A stretch of 64,000 bases of DNA from Turneriella sp. (GTDB lineage Bacteria; Spirochaetota; Leptospiria; Turneriellales; Turneriellaceae), in assembly GCA_965279515.1 (NCBI GenBank), contig CBDIID010000003.1, positions 4,512,001-4,576,000 on the forward strand. The letters are read 5' to 3'. How positions within the stretch are numbered: position 1 is the stretch's first letter; every line of letters begins with the position of its first letter. The position numbers and the translations under genes are program-made. Below are positions 44,275 through 60,605 of this stretch, one piece after another. The notes beneath the pieces were generated by a model. The model was not told where the DNA came from. It did no database searches and saw only the letters and a program-made list of their open reading frames with translations.

Positions 44275-45939
44275 ATGCGCTTACCCGCGATACGTAATCG
44301 GAGCCGCTATTCGCCGCTGATTGTCTTACTGGCTGTCTACTCACTGCTACTGATTTTTTTTCCACTGAAAATGCAGGCGATTGAATCTTACAACTATGCG
44401 GCTGGTGCAGAAGGTATTTATAGTCTGGCGTCAACTTTTCAATCGTCGCAGCCTGATATTAAGTTACCCGATTTTTCCCGCTACCACCCGAATCACCCGA
44501 TTCTGCACGCGCTCGCAGGATTTATTTTCGATCGGACAAAAATACCGACCCTGACGATTTTCAAAGCCGTCAATTTTCTAAGCTCCTTAGTTGCACTGGC
44601 AATTTTTTACCTGCTTTGCCTGAAGCTATGGGAACGGCGCGGTAGGGTCGGAAAAGCAGCCCTGGTGGCCGCGACGGCGGCAACCTCTGTTATGGCCGCG
44701 TCGCATGCTTTCTGGATGGCAGCTTTGTCGGGTGAGGTGCACTTGGCGGCGCTGGCCTGTTTTCTGGGCGCAGTTTATTTCCTGGTCTGCTACCTGTCCG
44801 TGGGGGAGAAACACGGAGACAAATATCTGATATGGGCCGCGGTCTGTGCGGCTGTAGCGCTGGCGCTGCACCTGGTGGTTGCGTTCGTGCTTCCCATGGC
44901 AATCGCAGTTCTTTGGGAACAGCGGTGGCGGAAACAATGGAAGCTCTATCTCGTCGCTGGACTGATTATTGCTCTGGTGGCCGGTTTGATTTATGGCGTT
45001 TTGTTGATCTATGTTCTGGGGATTGATTCCTTCAGGCAATATTATGGTACGATTTTTGTCTATAAATTCCTGCGTCATGTGCGCTATGAGGGGCTGGAAT
45101 GGTACTGGATATTTATTAAATCGTGGGCTCACGTCATCATTTATGGTTTTTCCTCCTGGGGAGCCATTCTCCAGGTTCTTTTCGCCGGCCTGTACCTTGC
45201 CGGATTCGCGGCCATATTAAAATCTACTCTGATGAAGCCGATCAAGATGCTACTGGTACTCTGGCCCGCATGCTACTTGGGCATGCATCTGTTGTTCAAT
45301 ACCCGGGCCGACGGTATTAATTACTGGCATTTTGCCCTCCCCGGTACGTTTATTGCAGTGGGTTATGCATTTCACGCTCTGCACAGGCGCGGCTTGCTTC
45401 GGCTGCTGATCTATGCGACTCCCGCGGCGGTTTTTGCCGCAAATTTTTCAGGCGCAGTTTTTCCCAACACAAGCTTGAAAGAGAAGGATTATTTATATAT
45501 TCAGGACCCGGCCCGGATGCTGAAGGAGTCGGGAAGGGCAATTCAGGTACTTCCAGATCACAAAGTTGCCGTCCTTACCAAAGACCCTGTGTTGACATTT
45601 CCGGAAATTTACCGACTGGCTTCGGAATTTGGATTCAGGAACCAGGAACTTTTCATATTTTGTTGCGGCAAGACCGGTTATGTTGAGCCGCTGAGAAACT
45701 GGATCGCCACCCATAATTCTTTTTTTCTCGTTGTCGATGAGCATACGGCCGAGATCGGGCAAATGCTCACGGATGCGCACAAAAAATTCATCGTACTTCA
45801 GGAGGTTTCGGGGGAAATCCAGCATAACTGGCTGGCGGCCTCAATTTATTTCCAGCGCCCCGCGGATTATCGCATCTTTAAGAATATCCGGATTTTTCTT
45901 ATTGACCCGGGTTTAACGGAGAAAGCAATTCCTAGGTAA
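44275..45939 (+). CDS. Polytopic membrane protein, GT-C fold glycosyltransferase-like (ArnT/PMT/DUF2723-like)
   Basis: About 11 TM helices; first loop with ES..Y and HPNHP; FW..A..GEVH; soluble C-terminal domain. Confidence 0.65.
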   Translation: MRLPAIRNRSRYSPLIVLLAVYSLLLIFFPLKMQAIESYNYAAGAEGIYSLASTFQSSQPDIKLPDFSRYHPNHPILHALAGFIFDRTKIPTLTIFKAVNFLSSLVALAIFYLLCLKLWERRGRVGKAALVAATAATSVMAASHAFWMAALSGEVHLAALACFLGAVYFLVCYLSVGEKHGDKYLIWAAVCAAVALALHLVVAFVLPMAIAVLWEQRWRKQWKLYLVAGLIIALVAGLIYGVLLIYVLGIDSFRQYYGTIFVYKFLRHVRYEGLEWYWIFIKSWAHVIIYGFSSWGAILQVLFAGLYLAGFAAILKSTLMKPIKMLLVLWPACYLGMHLLFNTRADGINYWHFALPGTFIAVGYAFHALHRRGLLRLLIYATPAAVFAANFSGAVFPNTSLKEKDYLYIQDPARMLKESGRAIQVLPDHKVAVLTKDPVLTFPEIYRLASEFGFRNQELFIFCCGKTGYVEPLRNWIATHNSFFLVVDEHTAEIGQMLTDAHKKFIVLQEVSGEIQHNWLAASIYFQRPADYRIFKNIRIFLIDPGLTEKAIPR

Positions 45940-49029: not shown

Positions 49030-50634
49030 GTGTTGCTGAAATTTCTTATTCAAGGTAAGCGTGTCGTTTACTTTGCGTTCATTCTGACAAATCTTGTTCT
49101 TGCAGCGAGAAATCTCGAAAGCAAACCTTTCTGGATTGACGAATCCATTGCCGTGATGCCGGCAAAAAATCTTCTTCCATACCAGACTTTTGACACTAAT
49201 TTTATGCCCTGGCAGATTAAATACAATCTCTGGGATCCGGGCACTCCACTGTACAGAATTACTTTAGGCGTTTTCGTCCGGGTATTCGGTTTCTCAGAAA
49301 ACTCGACGCGGGCTTTTTCGCTCCTTTTTGGCATATTGACACTATGCGTCTTCTTTGCTTTTCTTTACAGGTTGCGGGGCTTTGATTTTGGTCTAAGGGC
49401 CAGTGCCCTGGTTGTGGTTTTGCCCGCATTTATTGGCATAAGCTCTGAAGCGCGCCATTATTCATTTGCAATGTTCTGGATTTTTTTTTCTGCGTATGCC
49501 TGTCTGCGCTTTCTTCAAGCGCAATCGGAGCGCGCCTTCATGTTTCTTTTGCTCATTCTTGCGGGATCTGTGCTTTCGCATGTCATGGCGTATTTCGTCG
49601 TACCGATTATTGTTGTTTTCCTGTTCCTGAACAATGTGAAGATCAAGCATTTAATCCTGAGATTTGGACCATTATTAATTATCTGCATTCTTGCAGTTTA
49701 TCTACTCATTTTTTTAGATACATTGCCTTTCATGCATGTAGTAAATTGCAGTAACAGGAATTTTGGCTGCGAGAAGGGGCACATGTATTATTTAGGTACG
49801 ATTTGGAAGGTGCTTGAAGGCCTCAGGATTCAGTATGAAACCTTTGTGCCGGCCGCGGCAAACTCATTTTCTTTTATGGGTGTATTTGGTCTTGCTGCTA
49901 AACAGTTGACGATCGCGCATATGGCAATTTTCCTGGGATTTTTATGCTTGCTAAGGAATTTCAGGCAAGATAAATTTGTTTTGAAGCAAGAAGGAGTGTT
50001 CCTTGCTCTCCTGCTGTTACCGTTGGCAATTCTGTCGGTGCGCGAATATAAGGCCCACAAGTATTTTTTGGTTTATGCCACACCGGTTATCGGTTATATC
50101 ATGGCGTACGCCTTTGATTTCTTCCGGAGCTATCCCACCCATTTCAGGCATTTGTCAGAAATATTCTTTTTTCTCGCAATTGCGGCTTCGCTGCACTTTA
50201 ATATTAGTGAAATCATAATATCTCCCCGATTATATTTCCTCGATTTCGGGAAGAAATTGTCTTTACCAAGGCGGGATAATTTTGAGCGAATTGATGCGCA
50301 GGTAAGATATTTACGCGCTAATGCCCGCCCTACTGATAAGATTGTTGCAACCATGGATGACGCTAGCCTCAGTCATTATTTGGGCCGATTTGTTTTCAGC
50401 TTTTTAAATAACGGGCATGACGATGGTTTTTTTCTGGATTTGTTACGGAAGGCGGAAAAAAGCAAGACGCGGGTATATTTCATTAATATGGTAGAGTCAA
50501 ATAACCACTGCCTGACGGATGAGCCTGAACCTCGTTCCATAGATTGCCGGACAAAGTACCGGGTATTTTTTGAGCGTTGCACTTCGGGATTAGATAAGAG
50601 TTGCATTGAAATTAAGCCTCAGAACCTGCCTTGA
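49030..50634 (+). CDS. GT-C glycosyltransferase (GT39 / PMT-like)
   Basis: FWIDES after TM1, PLY..L..F..VFGFSE..RAFS, S.EARHYS, SH; many TM helices; Cys-containing C-terminal domain. Confidence 0.85.
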   Translation: MLLKFLIQGKRVVYFAFILTNLVLAARNLESKPFWIDESIAVMPAKNLLPYQTFDTNFMPWQIKYNLWDPGTPLYRITLGVFVRVFGFSENSTRAFSLLFGILTLCVFFAFLYRLRGFDFGLRASALVVVLPAFIGISSEARHYSFAMFWIFFSAYACLRFLQAQSERAFMFLLLILAGSVLSHVMAYFVVPIIVVFLFLNNVKIKHLILRFGPLLIICILAVYLLIFLDTLPFMHVVNCSNRNFGCEKGHMYYLGTIWKVLEGLRIQYETFVPAAANSFSFMGVFGLAAKQLTIAHMAIFLGFLCLLRNFRQDKFVLKQEGVFLALLLLPLAILSVREYKAHKYFLVYATPVIGYIMAYAFDFFRSYPTHFRHLSEIFFFLAIAASLHFNISEIIISPRLYFLDFGKKLSLPRRDNFERIDAQVRYLRANARPTDKIVATMDDASLSHYLGRFVFSFLNNGHDDGFFLDLLRKAEKSKTRVYFINMVESNNHCLTDEPEPRSIDCRTKYRVFFERCTSGLDKSCIEIKPQNLP

Positions 50635-50778
50635 GGAAGATCCCGGATTAAACCTTTAGTAACTTCAGCAAATGAGCAAAGGAACGCCGATGCGGAGATG
50701 TGAGCGAAGACACCGTCACTTGGTGCATTAGGATTGACAAGATTCGCGGCGGAAAGATACCTGCTGGGTTCAGTTGGC

Positions 50779-51555
50779 ATGGAGATTTACCCGATTCGCA
50801 AGATTTCCTATACCAACCTTACTCTGGACGGGCTTCTGGGTTTACAGCAGCCGGTGAAAATTCAGGGCTTCAAACCGTGGACGAACGTTTTTGAGAAAAA
50901 ACGTTTCATCAGAAAAATACACGATATGACGATGGATGTCTATAAATTGACAGGCTATGACCTTGCCGTTTCAGGCAAAGATGGTATCCGTTACCGACAT
51001 TCTGGTAAACCAGGCAAGGCATCACGACGGCCGCACTATATGGCGCAAACCATTGCTGACCACGAAAGATTTTTCTCAGAATTCCGTGGTATTCCTTTTG
51101 GTTGTCATGAGAGTTCTTACTTTAAAGCAAGGGTGTGGGTTGGCACCAAAGGAACGCGTACGCCGTTGCATCGCGACTTGGCTCATAATCTTCTCCTGTT
51201 GATTACGGGGAATAAGAGCATACGCCTTGTGGCGCCTTCGGCAAAACGCTTTGTTTATTCGCACAAACTTTGCAGCAGGACCCCGAATTTTGCCGAGCTT
51301 AACCTGCATAGGCCCGATTTCCGCCGTCATCCGCTCGCAAACAATCTGACGATCTACGAAAGCCGGCTTGTACCCGGAGAAATTCTCTATATACCACCCC
51401 TTTGGTGGCATGATGTCCGGAACACAGAACTCTCTGAGAGTATTAATTTCTGGTTTGCACCGTTTGGAATCTATTCCATAGCTGCAGGACTGGCGAATTT
51501 TCTGAATTCGACGATACGCATCTGGACGCGTCGGTCAAATGAATATGAAAAATAG
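50779..51555 (+). CDS. JmjC / cupin-8 Fe(II)/2-oxoglutarate oxygenase
   Basis: VWVG..GT.TPLHRD (HxD), GNK, PGEILYIPPLWWHDV, SINFW; start at ATG 50779 or TTG 50734. Confidence 0.88.
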   Translation: MEIYPIRKISYTNLTLDGLLGLQQPVKIQGFKPWTNVFEKKRFIRKIHDMTMDVYKLTGYDLAVSGKDGIRYRHSGKPGKASRRPHYMAQTIADHERFFSEFRGIPFGCHESSYFKARVWVGTKGTRTPLHRDLAHNLLLLITGNKSIRLVAPSAKRFVYSHKLCSRTPNFAELNLHRPDFRRHPLANNLTIYESRLVPGEILYIPPLWWHDVRNTELSESINFWFAPFGIYSIAAGLANFLNSTIRIWTRRSNEYEK

Positions 51556-51570
51556 CAGCGTGATTTTGGC

Positions 51571-52425
51571 ATGAGTAGTGGGCACCCAGCCCGTGATGTT
51601 TCTTTCGCCCAGCTTCTGCTCGGCGTGCCGGTCTTAGGCGCAACGATCTTCCCTTTGTGTGCGCTGATTTTCAAGTTTTTGCGCGCGGAGGGCGTTCTGC
51701 TTGCCATAAATTTTTCGCTGCTTTGGTATCCGGGGAAGCAAGAAATTCTGCACACGTTTTCGGCAATGCTCTTGTCGACGCTGGTCCTGGCTCAACTCTA
51801 TGGTTTCAACGATGTTTTGGATGCGGCGAATGATATCAGGGATCAAGATAAGAGATCCGAAATCGCAGCATTAATTCTCAAAAATTACGCAGCCTTCGTC
51901 GCTGCAGCAACAATTTGGGCGATTGGATTGCTGCTGGGTGCTTACTTTCTTTTTCCCAAAGCATTGCCGGGAGTCACAGCCATGCTGGTGATCAATATGC
52001 TTTATTCGATGATCTTTAAAGGAGTGCCGGTGGCTGATGTTGTTGTCGTCGCTTTTTGGGGTGGGTGTTTCCCTATGTTGCTTGGAGAGCCCGTGGACAT
52101 AGGGTTAATGGTTATTGTTGGGGCTATGACCGGTGTCAGCCACGTATGGCAGACCATGCGCGATAAAGATGCTGATGCCTCGGGTGGTATTAAGACCATT
52201 GCGGTCTTTTCGCGGTTCTGGGCAATAACTGCCGTTTTTCTATTCAGTTTCCTTATCGCCGCGATAACCGTCGGGCGCCTTTCTGGGGCGCAGACAATTT
52301 GCGCGGTGCTATTATGTGCCTCGCCATTATTTCTTTATTTTACCATGACCAGAATACGCAGTATCTGGGTTCTGACGAAAGTCGCCTTTGCGGTACTCTG
52401 GGTAATGATCTTATGGTTTCAATGA
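51571..52425 (+). CDS. UbiA-family prenyltransferase
   Basis: YGFNDVLDAANDIRD (NDxxDxxxD), YS..FKG, RDKDADASGGIKTIAV; 8-9 TM helices. Confidence 0.85.
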   Translation: MSSGHPARDVSFAQLLLGVPVLGATIFPLCALIFKFLRAEGVLLAINFSLLWYPGKQEILHTFSAMLLSTLVLAQLYGFNDVLDAANDIRDQDKRSEIAALILKNYAAFVAAATIWAIGLLLGAYFLFPKALPGVTAMLVINMLYSMIFKGVPVADVVVVAFWGGCFPMLLGEPVDIGLMVIVGAMTGVSHVWQTMRDKDADASGGIKTIAVFSRFWAITAVFLFSFLIAAITVGRLSGAQTICAVLLCASPLFLYFTMTRIRSIWVLTKVAFAVLWVMILWFQ

Positions 52426-52510
52426 AAAGGCTGGTCGCATTCTGCGCTTGCGACGTTACCCCTAACGGATTATCGTTCGTGCCTGCACATCCAGTCCTTT
52501 GACTTGTTTT

Positions 52511-53542
52511 TCAAAGCGAACCATAACCGGAATAAAGGCCAAGCAGGGATGAGAGTGGTTCGGTGAAAAGAAGATTTAGCTGAAGATATGGACCACAAAT
52601 GCAGCTATTACAGGGTTTTTTACCGTCATACGATTTCATCCACTCGTCGCGCAGCATGTTCACACCCGGTGTAGTCTTTTTAATCAGAGCACATGGATAT
52701 GCGGTGCCTTTGGAGTCAATGTAGATATACCCGTATCCAGCAGCGCAGTGGTTCTTCTCAAGGTTGGTCCGGATTTCGCGGTAATCCTTCCAGGCTATTA
52801 CCGATTCGATGTACCGTCGCGAGTTGGCTATCACGCGGGTCGTTTTCTGGAGAGTGAGAAGGTTTTTCCAAATGTCCCGATAGTGTTCGTTCGTAAATTC
52901 TGCCGAGAAGTTACCGCGGATGATGTCGGTGACGGGCGCCAAGGTCGAAACCCCTTTTATTTGAAAATGGAGCTTGAAACGGTATTTTTCTGCAAGTTCG
53001 ATGAGCTTAGGAATGCCCTCCGCGCTCTTCTCGTCGACGACGGTGATGGCAACCAGAGGGATGCCTCGCCTGCGAATGTCGGCGATCGCCTCGATGACGC
53101 CTATTGAAGATCCCGGGCCACGGTTTTTCTCGTGCAACTCAGCTGGACCGTCAAGGCTCGTGAAGGCGAAATCAATCTTGGTGAACACCTCCGGTTTATC
53201 GGCGTAGAGGAGCAGGTTTGAATTCAGCGAAACGTAGAAACCTCGTTTTTTAGCCAGGGTGATGATATCGCCGATGTCATCGCGAAGCAGCGGTTCACCC
53301 CCTGTAAGACCGAGGCGATAGATGCCGCTCTTGCGCAGGTTGTCGAACAAAAGGGATATTTCATCCAGGGTTAGTTCGCGGTCCTTGAGAAACGGGGAAT
53401 TGCAGTATCTACAGGTCAGGTTGCATCGGTTGCAAACCACAAAAACCGCTGAGAGGGGCCTGGGCCGATTTAGGTAACGGAAGTTTACGAAGCTGCGTGC
53501 GAAATGTGCACCGGCCTTCAGGTTATCCAGTGTGCTGGGCAT
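52511..53542 (-). CDS. Radical SAM enzyme with SPASM/twitch domain
   Basis: CNLTCRYC, TGGEPLLR, SLDG...H...RG, CAAG..YIDSKG..YPC..CNSC. Confidence 0.93.
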   Translation of the reverse strand: MPSTLDNLKAGAHFARSFVNFRYLNRPRPLSAVFVVCNRCNLTCRYCNSPFLKDRELTLDEISLLFDNLRKSGIYRLGLTGGEPLLRDDIGDIITLAKKRGFYVSLNSNLLLYADKPEVFTKIDFAFTSLDGPAELHEKNRGPGSSIGVIEAIADIRRRGIPLVAITVVDEKSAEGIPKLIELAEKYRFKLHFQIKGVSTLAPVTDIIRGNFSAEFTNEHYRDIWKNLLTLQKTTRVIANSRRYIESVIAWKDYREIRTNLEKNHCAAGYGYIYIDSKGTAYPCALIKKTTPGVNMLRDEWMKSYDGKKPCNSCICGPYLQLNLLFTEPLSSLLGLYSGYGSL

Positions 53543-54428
53543 AATTTTGTTGGCGGGCTACACACCACGCCTCTCCGCCGTTTTCGGAAAGTAACATTTG
53601 GTTATTTGAGGAAAAGTTTTCCAGAATCTCCCCGACTGGATCGGAGAGGAAATCCGCCACGTCCTTATCCTTGAGAACGGCTGGGCAGAACCTTAATTTT
53701 CCCGCTGTATTGATATGGAGATATAGGTTCGACATCGGTGGGCATTTTACGCCTGTGTCGCCTTCGTATTCCGGGTCATAAGACTGTATAAAGGTGAATC
53801 CAAGCCGTGCTGCAGCTTCGCGGCACTTCTCAAATATTTCCACAGCCTCGAGGCCGCGCCGCCACGGATTGCCACGTCCGGTGCTCTCCCAGATGCGAAA
53901 GCGGCTGAGTCCCGCGTCGTTGAGCTCTGCGAACATTTCGGGAATTTTGACGAGATTGTACTGGCCCACTGTGATGGTCGCTGTCACTTCGAGGCCGACT
54001 GCAAGCGCCGCGCGAATACCTTTCTGCTGCTCGTTGAATGCTCCCGGTATACCGTGCTGCGCATCGTGGAGTTCACTGCCCTGGTAGTTAACCTGTACCT
54101 GTTTGACTTTTTCGGTACTGAGGAAGTCAGCGAGCCGCTGCAGATTACCGCCATGCGTCACTACGTGTGTTAGGAAATCATGGCTGCGCGTTTCCCTGAC
54201 AAACGATTCGAATTCGGGATGCTCCGTTGGCTCGCCGCCCGACAGGGTGACCTGCAAAATACCGATGTCGCGTAATTTACGCAGAATTAATTTGAAATCT
54301 TCTAACCGCATTTCGTCAGTCAGATGGCCGTTAAATCCGCCATAACACCAGCCGCAACGGTGTGTGCAGCGGCTGGTGATGTTGATATAAGCCCACAGCG
54401 GCCGGCCGCTGAATTGGTCCAGCTTCAT
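53523..54428 (-). CDS. Radical SAM enzyme with twitch-like C-terminus
   Basis: ITSRCTHRCGWC, LSGGEPTEHP, CPP..LHINTAGKLRFC; start MKLDQF at 54428. Confidence 0.92.
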   Translation of the reverse strand: MKLDQFSGRPLWAYINITSRCTHRCGWCYGGFNGHLTDEMRLEDFKLILRKLRDIGILQVTLSGGEPTEHPEFESFVRETRSHDFLTHVVTHGGNLQRLADFLSTEKVKQVQVNYQGSELHDAQHGIPGAFNEQQKGIRAALAVGLEVTATITVGQYNLVKIPEMFAELNDAGLSRFRIWESTGRGNPWRRGLEAVEIFEKCREAAARLGFTFIQSYDPEYEGDTGVKCPPMSNLYLHINTAGKLRFCPAVLKDKDVADFLSDPVGEILENFSSNNQMLLSENGGEAWCVARQQNYAQHTG

Positions 54429-54509
54429 TCTCGAAGAGTATTGTTCAGCTTTCGAGAATGAGATCAAACACATCCGGAACCTAAATACAGGTCGTGTGCA
54501 CTCAAGCAA

Positions 54510-55307
54510 TCAGAAAAGAAGAATCCGGGGCAGAAGTATGCACAGCCACGCCGTCGCTTGCGTGGCTTTTAAGGCAAGCCACGCCTTATGCGAGAAACCA
54601 GCCAGCGCCCGCACACCGCCGCCTGCGAGGGCCAGCAAAGCGGCCCAGACAAAACCTTCGATCAGAAAAGCGCATGAAGCACCTGCCGTGGCAAAGTAGT
54701 AACCGGCGCTTTGCAGCCGGGGCGAATAAACCGCTGAGGTTGAAATACCGGCCGCGGTGTCCACACCCAGGTCACGCTGCATCTGAAAAGTATGGTTCAT
54801 CGCCAGCATAAATCCGGCTGCAAGTTTGAGGGTAAGGGGCGCCGCCGGGCAATACGCGTGGATAAAAAATGGCCCCCAAAGAAAGACCAGGAGAAGATCG
54901 AGACCGGGTCTTCCTTTTGCACCCAGGTTATACGACGTGCTAAGCGCGAAGGTTGCTGAGAGGCTGAGAAGGTGAGCAAGCGAAATTTGCCAGGCAAACC
55001 CGAGCAGAACCAGCGAATATGCCCCGTTCAGCAGATACGCATACGCCGGATACGCAGCGAGCGTTTTTAGCCAGGCGGCGGACCTGCGGGGATCGCGAAG
55101 GTCTGCCGGAGCGTCGTGGATGTCGTTCAGTGCGTACATGACTGCCAGGCCCGAGGCGGCCAAAACTAAGGTATGCGCACCATGGGTCACGGAAGTATAC
55201 AACCAGAGGAGAAAGGCGGTTAAACCCAGAAGTGCCCCTTCACCTTTTCTGAACCGGGAACCGAGGGAGAACAGGGGTGCGCACAAGAGATAAAGAAAAC
55301 GCATCAT
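54510..55307 (-). CDS. UbiA-family prenyltransferase (paralog of 51571-52425)
   Basis: YALNDIHDAPADLRD, Y..GAKGRPGLD, QRDLGVDTAAGISTSAV. Confidence 0.82.
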   Translation of the reverse strand: MMRFLYLLCAPLFSLGSRFRKGEGALLGLTAFLLWLYTSVTHGAHTLVLAASGLAVMYALNDIHDAPADLRDPRRSAAWLKTLAAYPAYAYLLNGAYSLVLLGFAWQISLAHLLSLSATFALSTSYNLGAKGRPGLDLLLVFLWGPFFIHAYCPAAPLTLKLAAGFMLAMNHTFQMQRDLGVDTAAGISTSAVYSPRLQSAGYYFATAGASCAFLIEGFVWAALLALAGGGVRALAGFSHKAWLALKATQATAWLCILLPRILLF

Positions 55308-56100
55308 ACGGTCTGTGCAGTATCGGTGGCTAGCGGTTTTACCCAGGCGTACTTATTGACACCGATGATTTTTCTCAGATAGAATGATCCGGCCGCAAGC
55401 AACTCATTGAGATTCGCCGGGGCGAACCAATGGTTTATGCTCGTGGCCTTTTCCATGTTTACAATGTTGTGCCACCAAAAAGGCGGAATATAGATGAGTT
55501 CAACCGCTTCGATGGTTGCGAGCCGCACGCTTTTCGGAAAGCCGTCTGTGCCTGGGGCGCGCAGATCGACCCGGGCAAAATACGGTGCCTTGGGAAAAAG
55601 GGAATGTCGGTACACTTCGGCTCCATTTCGGGGCTCGAGCATCAGGATGTCTTTTGCCCTTGCAGTGATGAGGATAAGCGGTTGCCCCGTATATCGCGGT
55701 GCGATGGCGTTCTGCTCGAGCCACCCGCAAGCGAGAGATGGTCGCGGAACCAAGCGAGCTTGTCGCATGCATGGGGTACGGGCAGGTTCCTGCTGAGCGC
55801 AGGTAGCAGGTTGCTGACAGATCCGGAAAAATAATAATCATCCCAGATGGTGAGCCGGTTCATGATTTCCCGGCCGCTAAATGTCGCGATCAAAAAACTG
55901 TTTGGCCCTGAAAGATCGAGCTTGTGTCCGTCGAGTTTTGCTGCCGTAATTCTCAAACTTTGCAGGCTTGCCAAAAGATAACGCTGCGTTAACCACCCCA
56001 CGGAAGGGACTCCCGTAAGTTTCAGGGGTTTCCGCGCATTCATGATCCGCCGGATATCGGAAGACGGGAAGCACGCGTTAGGTACATTCAATTCTCGCAC
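55304..56100 (-). pseudogene. Frameshifted JmjC / cupin-8 oxygenase (paralog of 50779-51555)
   Basis: 5' ORF ends RTPSHRDIRGN..LQGQK then stop; 3' ORF in another frame carries ILMLEP..VY..ELIYIPPFWWHNI..SINHWFAP; frame change near 55650-55685. Confidence 0.8.
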
Positions 56101-56162: not shown

Positions 56163-57617
56163 ATGGATTCAAATTCAAAAACGGACGGTACCCGCGCGCT
56201 TTTGGTCGTAGCGGCTTTTGCCGTCATAGCGGCCTTTCTCCTCGGCCGCACCGAGCGGAACTTTGACGAAGGCGTATATATCCAGCAGGCGAAACTCATC
56301 AGCACCGGTAAATTTCCTTTCGTGGATTTTTTCCACCATCAGTTCCCGCTTTACATCTATATCCTCGGTGGCTGGATTTTTCTTGGGTTCGAAAGCTTCG
56401 AGGCATGCCGCCTGCTTTCGCTGCTCTTCGTTTGCGCGGCGGCCTGGATGCTGGCGGAGATCCCGCGGCTGAATGGCCGTCCGGGGGCGGGGCCTTGGAT
56501 CGCCGCGCTTTTTCTTTTTTCACCGCTTACCCGGTTTTCCCTGATGGCTATGCCGACAGGACTCATGCTGTTTCTGATCACCGCGGGCTTCTGGAGCTTT
56601 TTTCGCGGCGGACGGTCGCTCTGGATGTCGGCCTTTTTTTTCAGCGCCGCACTTTTTGCGAAGCCGGTCGTATTGCCCGCGCTTTTGGTCCCCCCGGTTT
56701 TGCTCATGGCACAGCGCCGCTGGCGGGACTTGTTACTTTTTTCTAGCGGCGGTTTTCTTTTTTGCTTGGTTCTTGGAGGGGCAGTGCTTGCGGCAAGCAG
56801 TGGCAGCTTCATACAATTGTTTGCCGCCCAGTCGTCGCGTTTTTCGGGCAAACATGTGTTTCAGGTGCTACGCACAATGCCGCTCTTCTCCGAGTATCTT
56901 AGCGCGTCTAGTATTACATCCATGCTTGAGTATAACATTATAGAGCATACTCGGAATTTTTTTTCGCCTTTTCCGTTCAACCCGGGATTGCTTTATACTG
57001 TATTGGGTATCGCCGGAGCGGTTAAGCTTGCCATAACAGAACCGCGAAGGCTGCTATTTCCCGGAATCTGGTTCCTCCTTACTTTAGTTTTTCTCGTCTT
57101 CTTGATGAACCCCTCGTTTGATCACTATCAGGTCCAGTATGTTGCGCCGCTGGTGCTACTGGCCGTCGAAGTTCTGCGACCCGATGAAGAGGGTCGATGG
57201 AAAATCATCTTATTCTTAGTGATTGCAGCTACAGTGGTCTCCGGGTCTTTCTGGAAGGTGATGTCGCCGGTGACCGTTGCTCATCTGCGTGAGCGTTTTA
57301 AACCCGGCGAAGTCGTTGTGGCGCTGAACCCCCTGATTCATGCAGTGGCCCGCACCAATCCGGTTTGTGACGTGATAGATCCAATTAACACGTACGGAGA
57401 TACAGCACTCCCGGGGATCAAGCGTACGCAGGATTGGGAAAAATTTCTGATATCCGACGCGCAGATTAAAGAATGCCTCAGGAATCATCCCGATTCCAAG
57501 GTTTATCTACACCCGGTTTTCCGCGCCTTTGTCCATAAAGAACTTGCGGAATTCGCCGTTACTTTGCCTGAATGGAGGTTAGTTTCAGAACCAGCAAATA
57601 TCAAAAAGTTCCCGTAA
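56163..57617 (+). CDS. GT-C glycosyltransferase (ArnT / GT83-like)
   Basis: NFDEGVY after TM1, G..PFVDFFHHQFPL, RLLS, AK, FDHY; many TM helices. Confidence 0.82.
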   Translation: MDSNSKTDGTRALLVVAAFAVIAAFLLGRTERNFDEGVYIQQAKLISTGKFPFVDFFHHQFPLYIYILGGWIFLGFESFEACRLLSLLFVCAAAWMLAEIPRLNGRPGAGPWIAALFLFSPLTRFSLMAMPTGLMLFLITAGFWSFFRGGRSLWMSAFFFSAALFAKPVVLPALLVPPVLLMAQRRWRDLLLFSSGGFLFCLVLGGAVLAASSGSFIQLFAAQSSRFSGKHVFQVLRTMPLFSEYLSASSITSMLEYNIIEHTRNFFSPFPFNPGLLYTVLGIAGAVKLAITEPRRLLFPGIWFLLTLVFLVFLMNPSFDHYQVQYVAPLVLLAVEVLRPDEEGRWKIILFLVIAATVVSGSFWKVMSPVTVAHLRERFKPGEVVVALNPLIHAVARTNPVCDVIDPINTYGDTALPGIKRTQDWEKFLISDAQIKECLRNHPDSKVYLHPVFRAFVHKELAEFAVTLPEWRLVSEPANIKKFP

Positions 57618-57653: not shown

Positions 57654-58370
57654 TTAATAACTCAGTTTGCGGTTTGTGCGCATTGCATACTCCTCGAGTT
57701 CGTCCGGAGTTCCCAAATGCTCAAATGTTTCAGTAGGGAATGCAACTACAGAGCCCGTGCGTTTAATCGTGAAATTGTACACCGGAGAGATACTGAACAC
57801 TTTCGCCGCAAGGGCCGCTTTAGCATCGGTAACGAAATCTTTCCCGCTTCGCCACCAATAGGGTCCGGTAGTGGACCATGGACTAAACGGATCTTTTTCT
57901 CTCGTTTCCAAAACTTCGGTATCTCTTAATCTACAATAAGAATATTGCGGGTTCACAGCCCTCCGGATGGTTACGCCGCCCGAGGCGCGGCGGGAACGGA
58001 AAAAATCCAGCGCCCGCACCAGCTCGTCCGGGTCAATCAGGGCGTCGCAATCCGCGATCAGGATTTCATTTTCTTCGCTTATGCTTTGACTGCCAAAAAG
58101 CAGGGAAATTGTTTCTAGTGGACCGCGCGTATACGTCGCGAGGGGCAAGAATGAGATCTCACGGTTTTTTTGAATTTTCGCAAATTCTTTCTCGAATTCC
58201 GGCCGAATGATTACGAGATAACTGGCCCCCGGAGGGTATGAGTGAATAGCCCATTCGAAGAGCGTTTTTCCGTCCAGCCGTATGAACGGCTTATATGTTT
58301 GAATCCCCGCGTGCCTGAATCTTTCACCCGTTCCGCCGATCGGAAATATGACTGTCAGGGGATTATTCAT
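57654..58370 (-). CDS. Sugar-phosphate nucleotidyltransferase (NTP_transferase family)
   Basis: PIGGTGERF...YKPFI, TRGP, ILIADCD, YSY, EKDPFS, TGPY.W, LGTPDEL. Confidence 0.88.
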   Translation of the reverse strand: MNNPLTVIFPIGGTGERFRHAGIQTYKPFIRLDGKTLFEWAIHSYPPGASYLVIIRPEFEKEFAKIQKNREISFLPLATYTRGPLETISLLFGSQSISEENEILIADCDALIDPDELVRALDFFRSRRASGGVTIRRAVNPQYSYCRLRDTEVLETREKDPFSPWSTTGPYWWRSGKDFVTDAKAALAAKVFSISPVYNFTIKRTGSVVAFPTETFEHLGTPDELEEYAMRTNRKLSY

Positions 58371-58692
58371 CGACTATTACCTTATCCGACGCTCCGACTG
58401 ATGGAACTTTTACCACGATAACTTCACAATCGGTAAGAAAAACCGGTTTCGCGGCTTCTTTAGGTTCAAAAGTAAAAATCTGCTTCGCATGCAGCGTGAT
58501 GCCATTGACCATCATCGAACCGCTAAGTAAGAGATTTATTTCCATTGCGGTTTTTTGGTAATGATTGGGCCAGTCTTCCCCTTGCCGGTGGAACTTATAG
58601 CCTATTTCGAATGCTTCAGATCTAAAGACGCTAGGCTCAAAATTTCCAATAAAATAACCCAAGTGCATATCATCGAGTGAATAGATTTTCAT
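58363..58692 (-). CDS. Small cupin-fold protein
   Basis: G.FIGNFEPS, HYQ...EINLLLSG, P.F..DC..IVVKVPS..DK; translationally coupled on both sides. Confidence 0.75.
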   Translation of the reverse strand: MKIYSLDDMHLGYFIGNFEPSVFRSEAFEIGYKFHRQGEDWPNHYQKTAMEINLLLSGSMMVNGITLHAKQIFTFEPKEAAKPVFLTDCEVIVVKVPSVGASDKVIVDE

Positions 58693-59741
58693 TTTGAACT
58701 CTGTAGGGCATCGAGAAAAGCACGCGCCCCGGCTTCTATCCCGTTTTTATGGCCATGTATGGCCCCTCCGGCACTGATCATAATATCATTGCCGAATATT
58801 CTTCGCAATTTCCCCACGAGGCCCGGATGTGCGCCGCACGAGAAACTTGGAATAGTGTTTCTAAGTGCTTTGATTCTACTATGTAGAACAGCGGGGCTTT
58901 CATTGAGGTAACCGCCGAGCATCCCCACGTGAGAAAAATCGCACCCTATAAGGTTGATAATACGGCACAAGACATCAAATTGAATAGCGTTGGGGCCCGT
59001 GGTTAAGACTTTATCGCCCGATTTTTGAAAAAAGATTGCGATATTTACAAGCTTCCGGATCGCGTGAAAGGTGCCGAAGCCGCTCCAAATATTCATGTGT
59101 ACGGCTTTTATTCCCTGCTCTGCAGCCAGTTGCGCCTTTTCGATTGCTTCATTGCCGTCGCCGGTAATACACGGCGCGTAGATCATGCGGAATTCACCAA
59201 GCGCATCCCTAATGATCCGAATTCTTTCGGCAAATCTCGCGAAATTCTGGTCATTCAGGATCTCATCTTCTTTGATGAAGTCTGCTCCTCCCTTGGCCAT
59301 CTTTCGGCAAATTCCGGCAAACTCACTGGCGGCAAGACCTATTTTCGGTTTAACAATACCGCCTATGAGGGGCCGATCGTAGACCTGTAAGAAATCCCGA
59401 ATTCCCTGAATTCCGAACCGGGGGCCAGGAAACTGATGCTCGATAGCTGAGAGATCCAGGCCCACGAGTTTACATTCCTGGATATGATCTATATCCAGCT
59501 GCCCACCCATGATTACACTCAAAATATGACTAATGCCCGAGTTGCTGAATATTTCCGCAGGAAACCGTACCGTAATACGGTTTCCGCGGTATGAGCCTTG
59601 GGCAATAAAGGCGCCGAGTTTTTCATCCAATGGAGTACGAATATCCGGATTCCCGATAGTCTGGCCGATGCAAATATCACGGACTGCCTTGCGCATATTT
59701 TTTGCACGAACGCTGTAAGTGGCCGTAATAAATCGATCCAT
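58689..59741 (-). CDS. RuBisCO-like protein (form IV-type large-subunit homolog), compact 350 aa
   Basis: FPGPRFGIQGIR, RPLIGGIVKPKIGL, GGADFIKEDE, GCDFSHVG, PSFSCG.HPG, FGND....GGAIHGH..G..AGARA. Confidence 0.93.
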   Translation of the reverse strand: MDRFITATYSVRAKNMRKAVRDICIGQTIGNPDIRTPLDEKLGAFIAQGSYRGNRITVRFPAEIFSNSGISHILSVIMGGQLDIDHIQECKLVGLDLSAIEHQFPGPRFGIQGIRDFLQVYDRPLIGGIVKPKIGLAASEFAGICRKMAKGGADFIKEDEILNDQNFARFAERIRIIRDALGEFRMIYAPCITGDGNEAIEKAQLAAEQGIKAVHMNIWSGFGTFHAIRKLVNIAIFFQKSGDKVLTTGPNAIQFDVLCRIINLIGCDFSHVGMLGGYLNESPAVLHSRIKALRNTIPSFSCGAHPGLVGKLRRIFGNDIMISAGGAIHGHKNGIEAGARAFLDALQSSK

Positions 59742-59843
59742 CAGGAGCTTTTTTGAAACTAATCAGATATCAACTTGTCAATAAGTTTCATCGGAGATTG
59801 TTCTTGACTCTCGACGGAATACAAATCAAGTTGCGTCAAAAAA

Positions 59844-60605
59844 ATGTCAAAAGTTCGCCGACGCGTCAATACTTCTATTGTTATTCCGTGTTATAATGAA
59901 GAGGAGAATATTGAAAAAATGCTTGCTGGGTTTAGTGCAGCTTTGCGGGACGATTTTTTCGGCATAGAAATTATTTTTGTTAACAACGGATCCACAGACC
60001 GTACAGGTGAACTGTTGCAAAAAAAAATAGCTGACCATAAATTCGCGAAGGCTATTCACCTGGCGCACAATTTTGGTTACGGCCACGGCATATTAGCAGG
60101 TCTTAACAATGCGGATGGAAGTCTTGTGGGATACATGCACGGTGACATGCAGGTTCTTCCGGCATCAGTCATCGAAATCGCACGTTCACTATCATCGATC
60201 AAAATCAACGCACCATTGTTCTTTAAGGCGCGAAGATATGGTAGGAGTTTTTTTGAAGTTGTTTTTACTCTTTGTATGACTTTGTTTTGCTCGTTCTTAT
60301 TTAAATTCTGGTTAGCCGATATTAACGCTCAACCCACCTTTTTCAGAAAAAATCTCCTGGAAGATTTGACTGAGATTCCCGGGGATTTCTCCTTTGACCT
60401 TTTCTTATTCCTGATTGCAAAAAAAAGAGGCATTCAGTTGATCCGGAAGCCTGTTCGGGTACATAAAAGAATCGGAGGGATTTCCAGTTGGAATCATGGC
60501 ATCATTTCAAAGTTTGTATTATCATGGTCCTTTGTTAAGGCGGCCCTGAGTATCAGGAAAACTTTTCGGATTACAAGTAGTAAGCATCAGGTTCAAAAGA
60601 TATGA
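59844..60605 (+). CDS. GT2 glycosyltransferase (polyprenol-phosphate sugar synthase-like)
   Basis: SIVIPCYNEEENI, VNNGSTD.T, N.GYG..I..G, HGDMQ, DINAQP, FSFDL. Confidence 0.9.
   Translation: MSKVRRRVNTSIVIPCYNEEENIEKMLAGFSAALRDDFFGIEIIFVNNGSTDRTGELLQKKIADHKFAKAIHLAHNFGYGHGILAGLNNADGSLVGYMHGDMQVLPASVIEIARSLSSIKINAPLFFKARRYGRSFFEVVFTLCMTLFCSFLFKFWLADINAQPTFFRKNLLEDLTEIPGDFSFDLFLFLIAKKRGIQLIRKPVRVHKRIGGISSWNHGIISKFVLSWSFVKAALSIRKTFRITSSKHQVQKI

Follow-up and report, generated by a model that had tools for sequence, protein, structure and literature searches.

We analysed a 64,000-nucleotide stretch of the genome of Turneriella sp. (GCA_965279515.1, contig CBDIID010000003.1, positions 4,512,001 to 4,576,000), hereafter the window, which carries a gene for a RuBisCO-like protein (RLP). 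The RLP gene heads an operon that continues with genes for a cupin and a nucleotidyltransferase, and this operon faces a divergent pair encoding a GT2 glycosyltransferase and a GDPD-like phosphodiesterase (Table 1). The open reading frame that an earlier annotation by eye (the sequence-only reading) had assigned to the RLP is real, and it is the sole PF00016 gene of the host genome, which is 99.99% complete. As argued below, this protein very probably acts in a cassette that makes a nucleotide-activated sugar for surface glycans.

The RLP scored well under the cut-offs of all NCBIfam models (RbcL, 170 vs 438; form III, 170 vs 497; MtnW, 162 vs 409; OiaX, 116 vs 700 bits). A 113-sequence alignment gave an AlphaFold2 model with a predicted local distance difference test score of 96.3, which superposed on Rubisco chains with Z scores of 41-43 and root-mean-square deviations of 1.7-2.0 Å over 343-349 aligned residues, spanning spinach positions 32-429. 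The best PDB matches were form III and ancestral form I Rubiscos. As judged from the model, the RLP is a complete Rubisco large-subunit fold with both domains present, and in combining this fold with a non-canonical active site it belongs to form IV in the broad sense. The protein had been described as much shorter than typical RLPs, which holds only in part, as its 47 best full-length matches measure 335-404 aa (median 363) and four DeepYkr-type RLPs 371-377 aa. The chain is short because tails and loops are trimmed; no domain is missing.

HMMER alignments to PDB chains and to one form I CbbL served to map the RLP onto the spinach residue numbers and residue roles. The mapping confirmed that the RLP retains the Rubisco residues K175 and K177 (K131 and K133 in the RLP), K201, D203 and E204 (K157, D159 and E160), H327 (H271), S379 and G381 (S301 and G303), and G403 and G404 (G325 and G326), with D202 replaced by Glu so that KDDE reads KEDE. 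It also bore out the replacement of H294 by Q239, R295 by K240 and K334 by Y278, as well as an altered E60 region, in which G26 occupies the position of E60 and N31 that of T65. The sequence-only reading was off by one at N123, which it gave as Q: in an ungapped block N123 aligns with G80, and Q81 with V124. The RLP therefore lacks the residue set of bona fide Rubiscos, with G, G, Q, K and Y at E60, N123, H294, R295 and K334, respectively. Changes that had gone unmentioned are M266 to H215, G380 to C302, H298 to D243 and H292 to F237.

These features are shared by the family, for which residues were counted in 338 sequences, a redundant set (183 at 80% identity). K175, K177, K201, D203, E204, S379 and G381 are kept in all 338, G403 in 334, G404 in 327 and H327 in 311. 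The replacements are likewise family-wide: N123 to G, M266 to H and G380 to C occur in 338/338, H294 to Q in 337, K334 to Y in 332, R295 to K in 316 and H298 to D in 308, and the E60 motif reads GQ[ST][IVL]G[NH]P in 337 of the 338. Furthermore, Q27, Q81, D83, H215 and C302 are new invariant residues of the RLP family. H294 is kept in all 12 references (forms I, II, III-type, OiaX, tetronate-type, NonPhoto and DeepYkr) and in MtnW; therefore, Q294, Y334 and H266 mark the RLP clade among the clades compared. That CO2 fixation is unlikely, as previously suggested, is supported by the alignment, in which neither H294 nor K334 is conserved. The companion claim of intact enolisation chemistry can be held only conditionally, because H294, present in the references and in MtnW, is lost from the RLP; the metal centre is kept, and the invariant His at position 266 may compensate for the missing His294.

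A protein search with the RLP gave 1298 matches at E<=1e-20, and the best 120 included 119 relatives that were 38-88% identical. Species-representative genomes contributed 52 loci. Five of these (L046, L048-L051) keep N123, H294 and R295 and were taken as true Rubiscos, excluded from the family counts and used as controls. The other 47 belong to the RLP family and span SAR11, Legionella, Woesearchaeota and other DPANN, Beckwithbacteria, Nonomuraea, Elusimicrobia and further groups. A total of 295 matches came from IMG/VR, 80 of which form the viral family set, and there was no match among 50,697 INPHARED deposited phage records. A quick maximum-likelihood tree, built without MtnW and IV-Photo, placed 63 family representatives on one side of a branch and 17 references on the other (SH-aLRT 100), with the Beckwithbacteria locus (L022) and the viral rows inside the family clade. 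The ratio of nonsynonymous to synonymous substitution rates (dN/dS) had a median of 0.058 and a maximum of 0.138 in 35 measurable pairs out of 59 disjoint pairs of 80-97% identity, the other 24 being saturated. These sequence comparisons point to purifying selection on the family; the measurable dN/dS values, all at or below 0.14, show no random decay of the homologues. The selection figures are those of family pairs, the window copy having no close DNA relative and a saturated dS; in the quick tree this copy sits on a long terminal branch (0.82).

Within the genus the gene is isolated. We did not find it in 13 genomes of the same genus, and in the genomes of 40 relatives other Rubisco-family genes occurred in four (29-34% identity) and the GDPD-like neighbour in none. 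The GC content is 48% for the RLP gene, 41% for the cupin gene and 50% for the nucleotidyltransferase gene, vs 53% genome-wide. The patchy distribution and the GC content fit a laterally gained island.

The searchable text of Jaffe, Castelle, Dupont and Banfield (10.1101/386292; PMC6389311) describes about 90 'Form IV-like' sequences, found on phage contigs and in Beckwithbacteria, that form an outgroup to other RLPs and whose function is unclear. Our clade is most likely this group. Both are deep clades with a divergent active site, and ours likewise brings IMG/VR phage and Beckwithbacteria together, apart from other RLPs and from Rubiscos; the clade recovered here differs in also spanning SAR11, Legionella, DPANN, Nonomuraea and the host genome. 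The names in the supplement of that study include IMG taxon 3300000116, the identifier of our locus L132, which is a circumstantial match of names. The sequence-only reading of a distinct RLP subfamily with a new reaction thus stands as to distinctness and conservation, and a reaction of its own is probable, but as a clade the family is not new. Its substitution pattern fits none of the characterised RLP clades compared. In the searchable text and supplement text of Jaffe et al., the strings 'nucleotidyl' and 'glycosyl' do not occur; their Fig. S1, an image of genomic context, may show such neighbours. New RuBisCO groups are mentioned, with no further detail, in the accessible part of the GOS paper (PMC1821046), and in that of a 2025 biochemical survey the RLPs appear as a collapsed outgroup (10.1101/2025.11.05.686826). 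A search of the non-subscription literature found nothing on an RLP-nucleotidyltransferase cassette, in phages or elsewhere, or on CDP-xylulofuranose biosynthesis, and no biosynthetic context in print for the described Form IV-like clade.

The linkage between the RLP and the nucleotidyltransferase extends across the family. The sequence-only reading had overlooked this nucleotide-sugar cassette, which offers the best pointer to what the protein does. A nucleotidyltransferase gene lies within 1.5 kb of the RLP gene in 38/47 genome loci and 73/80 viral loci (111/127 together), and in 30/32 and 64/67, respectively, when only loci with full flanks are counted. GDPD-like genes are found near the RLP gene in 31/47 genome and 65/80 viral loci, and cupin genes in 9/47 and 62/80; one protein (P0023) is a GDPD-RLP fusion. 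None of the three partners was present in the five true-Rubisco control loci. Also nearby are genes for glycosyltransferases and NDP-sugar dehydratases and DUF7796/WavE-type genes; neither dehydrogenases nor kinases are constant partners of the RLP among the family loci. One viral sub-branch (L064, L080, L089, L102 and similar loci) has a different arrangement: after the RLP gene come genes for an APH-type kinase, a dehydroquinate-synthase-like protein and two short-chain dehydrogenases, which replace the GDPD-like gene.

Table 1. Features around the RLP operon in the 64,000-nucleotide window, ordered by position.
Feature	Coordinates	Strand	Remarks
Multi-pass membrane protein; candidate GT-C-type acceptor transferase and candidate cassette member	56163..57617	+	No Pfam match; hydrophobic by eye
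Nucleotidyltransferase, 238 aa	57654..58370	-	PF12804 E=3.3e-6; family HMM E=1.5e-55; overlaps cupin by 8 nt
Cupin, 109 aa, HxHx4E metal motif	58363..58692	-	Start overlaps RLP stop by 4 nt
RLP, Form IV-like RuBisCO-like protein, 350 aa	58689..59741	-	PF00016 E=3.6e-38; proposed ketopentose-phosphate isomerase heading the cassette
Intergenic gap separating the RLP operon from the divergent GT2-GDPD pair, 102 bp	59742..59843	.	From coordinates
GT2 glycosyltransferase, GtrB/ArnC-like	59844..60605	+	PF00535 E=1e-19; putative polyprenyl-phosphate sugar loading
Miniature GDPD/PI-PLC-like phosphodiesterase, 200 aa	60602..61204	+	No Pfam match; overlaps GT2 by 4 nt

The cupin of the window has no Pfam match, and one relative matches Cupin_7/Cupin_2 weakly. 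In 45 sequences its H44 and E51 are invariant and H46 nearly so, its own-family hidden Markov model (HMM) matches it with E=2e-43, and a comparison with the PDB gave no meaningful match. The nucleotidyltransferase, which is presumably BcbE-like, groups in a FastTree phylogeny with RLP-linked enzymes of three other loci (L261, L002, L003), and a relative of it has as best PDB match 4evw, an NDP-sugar pyrophosphorylase. The GDPD-like protein has Atlas neighbours named PI-PLC/GDPD (0.97), and a viral scan with it confirmed nothing. We found no consensus sigma-70 promoter in the gap between the divergent genes; a promoter and terminator scan returned three sites of each kind, fewer than in shuffles.

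The sole PF00485 match of the host genome is uridine-kinase-like, and neither the PF00485 search nor a profile of the phosphoribulokinase (PRK) cassettes described below found a PRK in it; therefore, ribulose 1,5-bisphosphate made by PRK is unlikely to be on hand. Furthermore, the host encodes, elsewhere in its genome, an MtnA-like protein together with MtnB, MtnC and MtnD that score over their cut-offs, and with this full set methionine salvage does not depend on the RLP. A 693-aa protein encoded outside the window (L322:1300-3381; G000:C3) has a C-terminal domain closest to uridine kinases and, by eye, a cNMP-binding-like N-terminus.

Cassettes of the same kind also occur without the RLP. 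Those found on plasmids contain GDPD, HAD and at least one nucleotidyltransferase gene, often with cupin and WavE genes. The cupin occurs in RLP-free cassettes as well, and a cupin-anchored set of 160 loci (80 of 508 viral and 80 of at least 576 metagenomic) allowed us to compare loci with and without the RLP gene. An HAD phosphatase gene was present in 16/110 loci with the RLP vs 33/50 loci without it, and in 5/38 vs 15/20 (p=4e-6) when flanks of at least 2.5 kb were required and the loci were dereplicated at 80%. Loci with both genes carried two nucleotidyltransferases in 10 of 12 cases, whereas those with the RLP only carried one in 47 of 56. A strict mutual exclusion of RLP and HAD, considered as a candidate rule, was rejected on account of the loci that have both. 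In a FastTree phylogeny of 87 nucleotidyltransferase domains, whose labels can be wrong in two-cassette loci, the RLP-linked enzymes are interleaved with HAD- and RpiB-linked ones, and the RLP label changes 10 times, six of these changes being forced by starred branches.

Two kinds of RLP-free front end bear on the substrate class. Three loci (L142, L146, L214) carry a nucleotidyltransferase-RpiB fusion with a PfkB-like kinase and a KdsC-like phosphatase, a combination seen in no locus with the RLP. In three others (L318-L320), the kinase most resembles true phosphoribulokinases (E=1e-37, vs 3e-18 for uridine kinase) and is accompanied by HAD and class II aldolase genes and a double nucleotidyltransferase. 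Where the sister front ends point to a substrate, it is a pentulose phosphate, and in two of these front ends a kinase occurs together with a phosphatase, a pairing that amounts to a net shift of the phosphate from C5 to C1. The PRK cassettes of L318-L320 resemble the window in nucleotidyltransferase family and in their GT2 and GDPD-like genes, which are homologous to those of the window and are arranged in the same order: the GT2 of the window is 38-40% identical to theirs, vs a full-length identity of no more than 24% with other GT2s of the host, and the GDPD-like protein of the window is 43-45% identical to theirs. They differ in using an ATP-dependent kinase and a phosphatase, and neither an RLP nor a cupin was found in them. 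In L318, L319, L320 and a further locus, L331, the domain closest to phosphoribulokinase is fused to a membrane GT-C-like protein and occurs with HAD, class II aldolase and the double nucleotidyltransferase. In another RLP-free locus (L316:1-3995), an HAD cassette directly follows an erythritol-type catabolic cluster (FGGY kinase, dehydrogenase, TIM barrel, triose-phosphate isomerase and RpiB), an adjacency that may be chance or a pointer to tetrulose phosphates.

Among characterised RLPs, the closest working model is the DeepYkr-type enzyme of R. rubrum. As described in the accessible text of two papers, it is a 5-methylthioribulose 1-phosphate (MTRu-1-P) 1,3-isomerase that yields 1-methylthioxylulose 5-phosphate (MTXu-5-P) and 1-methylthioribulose 5-phosphate (MTRu-5-P) (PMC6302742, PMC4958253). 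The likeness lies in a ketopentose with one phosphate, a carbonyl migration by which a 1-phosphate becomes a 5-phosphate, a chain of about 370 aa and a cupin partner. DeepYkr enzymes nevertheless form a separate clade with about 27% identity to the RLP, and their site has KDDH, lacks K177, keeps H294 and has GGRF in loop 6, whereas that of the RLP has KEDE, KPK, Q294, H266 and GGYL. Their context is catabolic and that of the RLP biosynthetic.

MtnW (YkrW), the enolase acting on 2,3-diketo-5-methylthiopentyl-1-phosphate (DK-MTP-1-P), also has a one-phosphate substrate, HAD and RLP enzymes being interchangeable in its pathway, and it has Gly at the position of E60. It differs in having Lys at 123, H294 and P295 where the RLP has G, Q and K; no mtn genes lie near the RLP, which scored 128 vs 514 bits in a second comparison with MtnW. 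OiaX and the RLPs acting on four-carbon acid sugars (IV-NonPhoto type) share the fold and sugar-phosphate chemistry, and OiaX also has Gly at 123. Unlike the RLP, they retain H294, R295 and K334, have no K177 and lie beside sugar-acid kinases and transporters.

Taken together, the pentulose-phosphate sister front ends, the phosphate swap of the R. rubrum enzyme, the kept metal centre and P1 site, and the Lys and Asp at the site of the second phosphate lead us to propose that the RLP may be a pentulose-5-phosphate to pentulose-1-phosphate isomerase acting by carbonyl migration, an assignment by analogy to which we give somewhat less than an even chance. The full reading that we favour, isomerase reaction included, is tentative and also short of even; in it a functional, non-carboxylating Form IV-like RLP, whose role in the cassette is in itself very probable, stands at the front end of the route to a nucleotide-activated ketose, most likely a pentulose. 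From the fold, the residues, the selection, the linkage and the partial replacement pattern described above, we infer the substrate, reaction, product and order of later steps as follows. Carbamylated K201, with D203 and E204, would bind Mg2+, and the single phosphate of the substrate would lie in the kept P1 site. Two enediolate proton transfers would then shift the carbonyl from C2 to C4 and turn ribulose- or xylulose-5-phosphate into a pentulose-1-phosphate without ATP, the reverse of the conversion of MTRu-1-P to MTXu-5-P in R. rubrum. The invariant His266 would take the place of the lost His294, and K295 and D298 would bind a free hydroxyl end where Rubisco binds the second phosphate. Enzymes of the GDPD fold work via cyclic phosphates, by which the anomeric 2-phosphate could be reached from the 1-phosphate with no kinase: the nucleotidyltransferase and the GDPD-like enzyme would move the phosphate to the anomeric C2 via a 1,2-cyclic phosphate, yielding an NDP-ketofuranose. 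The cupin may be an optional epimerase or isomerase. In the host, the GT2 would load the sugar on polyprenyl phosphate for a GT-C transferase.

Several observations weigh against this isomerase reading. The known 1,3-isomerases belong to a different clade with a different site, as described above, and decarboxylase and oxygenase activities appear in the accessible text of a report on RLPs (PMC10176493). The anticorrelation of RLP and HAD weakens to p=0.02-0.05 at 65% dereplication (4/21 vs 7/12, p=0.05, with flanks of at least 2.5 kb), and even these p-values overstate it because kin are not independent. The cupin query behind the anchored set was built mostly from RLP-linked cupins, 16 loci have both RLP and HAD, and 17, some of them short, have neither. 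In one genome (G045) an RLP cassette (L002) occurs alongside a PRK cassette (L331), a coexistence that points to redundancy or to different products. Of the 110 loci with the RLP, 54 have a Methyltransf_24-like gene after it, vs 1/50 RLP-free loci with such a gene, and this nearly RLP-specific methyltransferase, of a mostly viral family (for example, L167:4140-4814), hints at a different product; it was not found in the host genome. Cassettes with HAD only may start from a hexose bisphosphate, and the searchable literature named no product for any sister cassette.

The same linkage of nucleotidyltransferase, GDPD and cupin would also fit a tailoring step in the cassette, in which the RLP acts as a C3 epimerase or 2-to-3 ketoisomerase that alters which sugar results, with no phosphate shift. 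Misprotonation is a side reaction of Rubisco, and the coexistence of RLP and PRK cassettes in one genome as well as the RLP-specific methyltransferase also speak for tailoring; we consider it unlikely, as it leaves unexplained why the kinase and phosphatase front ends are mostly missing beside the RLP. The RLP/HAD anticorrelation would also suit an enzyme that stands in for HAD by enolising a ketose bisphosphate and expelling one phosphate, leaving a deoxy-dicarbonyl for the cupin to process. Rubisco mutants at E60, N123 and K334 do leak elimination products. A swap between MtnW/MtnX and MtnC, described in the accessible text of PMC6302742, offers a precedent. With no PRK in the host, D298 in the second phosphate site and no cupin in most genome loci, such an elimination seems quite unlikely. 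Chemistry on the carbon skeleton (oxygenase, decarboxylase, transcarboxylase or rearrangement), giving the cassette a branched or shortened sugar acid, has support in the decarboxylase, transcarboxylase and oxygenase RLPs mentioned in the accessible parts of PMC10176493 and PMC6302742, and in the new invariant residues of the family. It is made improbable by the lack of a dehydrogenase or kinase as fixed partner and by OiaX and tetronate-type RLPs, which keep the H294, R295 and K334 that the RLP has lost; its OiaX score is also far under the cut-off.

Very improbable, in our view, is an RLP of the methionine-salvage type acting on MTRu-1-P or DK-MTP-1-P. The adjoining cupin recalls R. rubrum, according to the accessible text of PMC4958253, and the host has an MtnA-like gene; against this stand the host MtnB, MtnC and MtnD, the low MtnW score, the differing clade and residues, a cupin that recurs in RLP-free cassettes, and a context of glycan genes. 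We regard it as highly improbable that the protein is either a bona fide carboxylase or a remnant that is decaying or non-catalytic. Its best PDB matches are form III and ancestral form I Rubiscos and the window copy has a long end branch, but all five residues from E60 to K334 listed above are replaced, the host has no PRK, the median dN/dS is low in the measurable pairs and the metal ligands are invariant.

If the biosynthetic reading is true, its consequences go beyond this locus. The characterised RLPs named in the literature consulted act in salvage or catabolism, and a biosynthetic role in nucleotide-sugar formation would be a new use of the Rubisco fold. It would explain phage 'Rubisco' genes, which should then not be counted as carbon-fixation genes, and would expose an unstudied way of activating ketoses. 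The clade concerned is large, as the IMG/VR matches and species-representative loci attest, and the sister cassettes narrow the list of substrates to a few commercially available pentulose phosphates. More doubtful is the wider proposition that Form IV-like RLPs are anabolic, ATP-free 'phosphate-flipping' isomerases with His266 in place of His294, opening an undescribed route through nucleotidyl transfer and GDPD-type opening of a 1,2-cyclic phosphate to NDP-ribulose or NDP-xylulose, which bacteria, DPANN and hundreds of large phages would use for surface glycans. The cupin matches three INPHARED phage records, and both of the two that were fetched are RLP-free.

Elsewhere in the window, GT-C-like genes with PMT_2 and TMEM260-like matches lie at 49030-50634 and 44275-45939. 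The block at 50734-56100, which has GT2 and GT-C-like genes around it, resembles a second lipid-linked modification system and contains two JmjC/Cupin_8 genes, two UbiA-like prenyltransferase genes (products 30% identical) and two radical SAM genes (26% identical). Its second JmjC-like gene (55304-56100, minus strand) is split into two overlapping frames (55642-56100 and 55304-55768), of which only the downstream piece matches the intact paralogue at 50734-51555, consistent with a frameshift or an assembly error.

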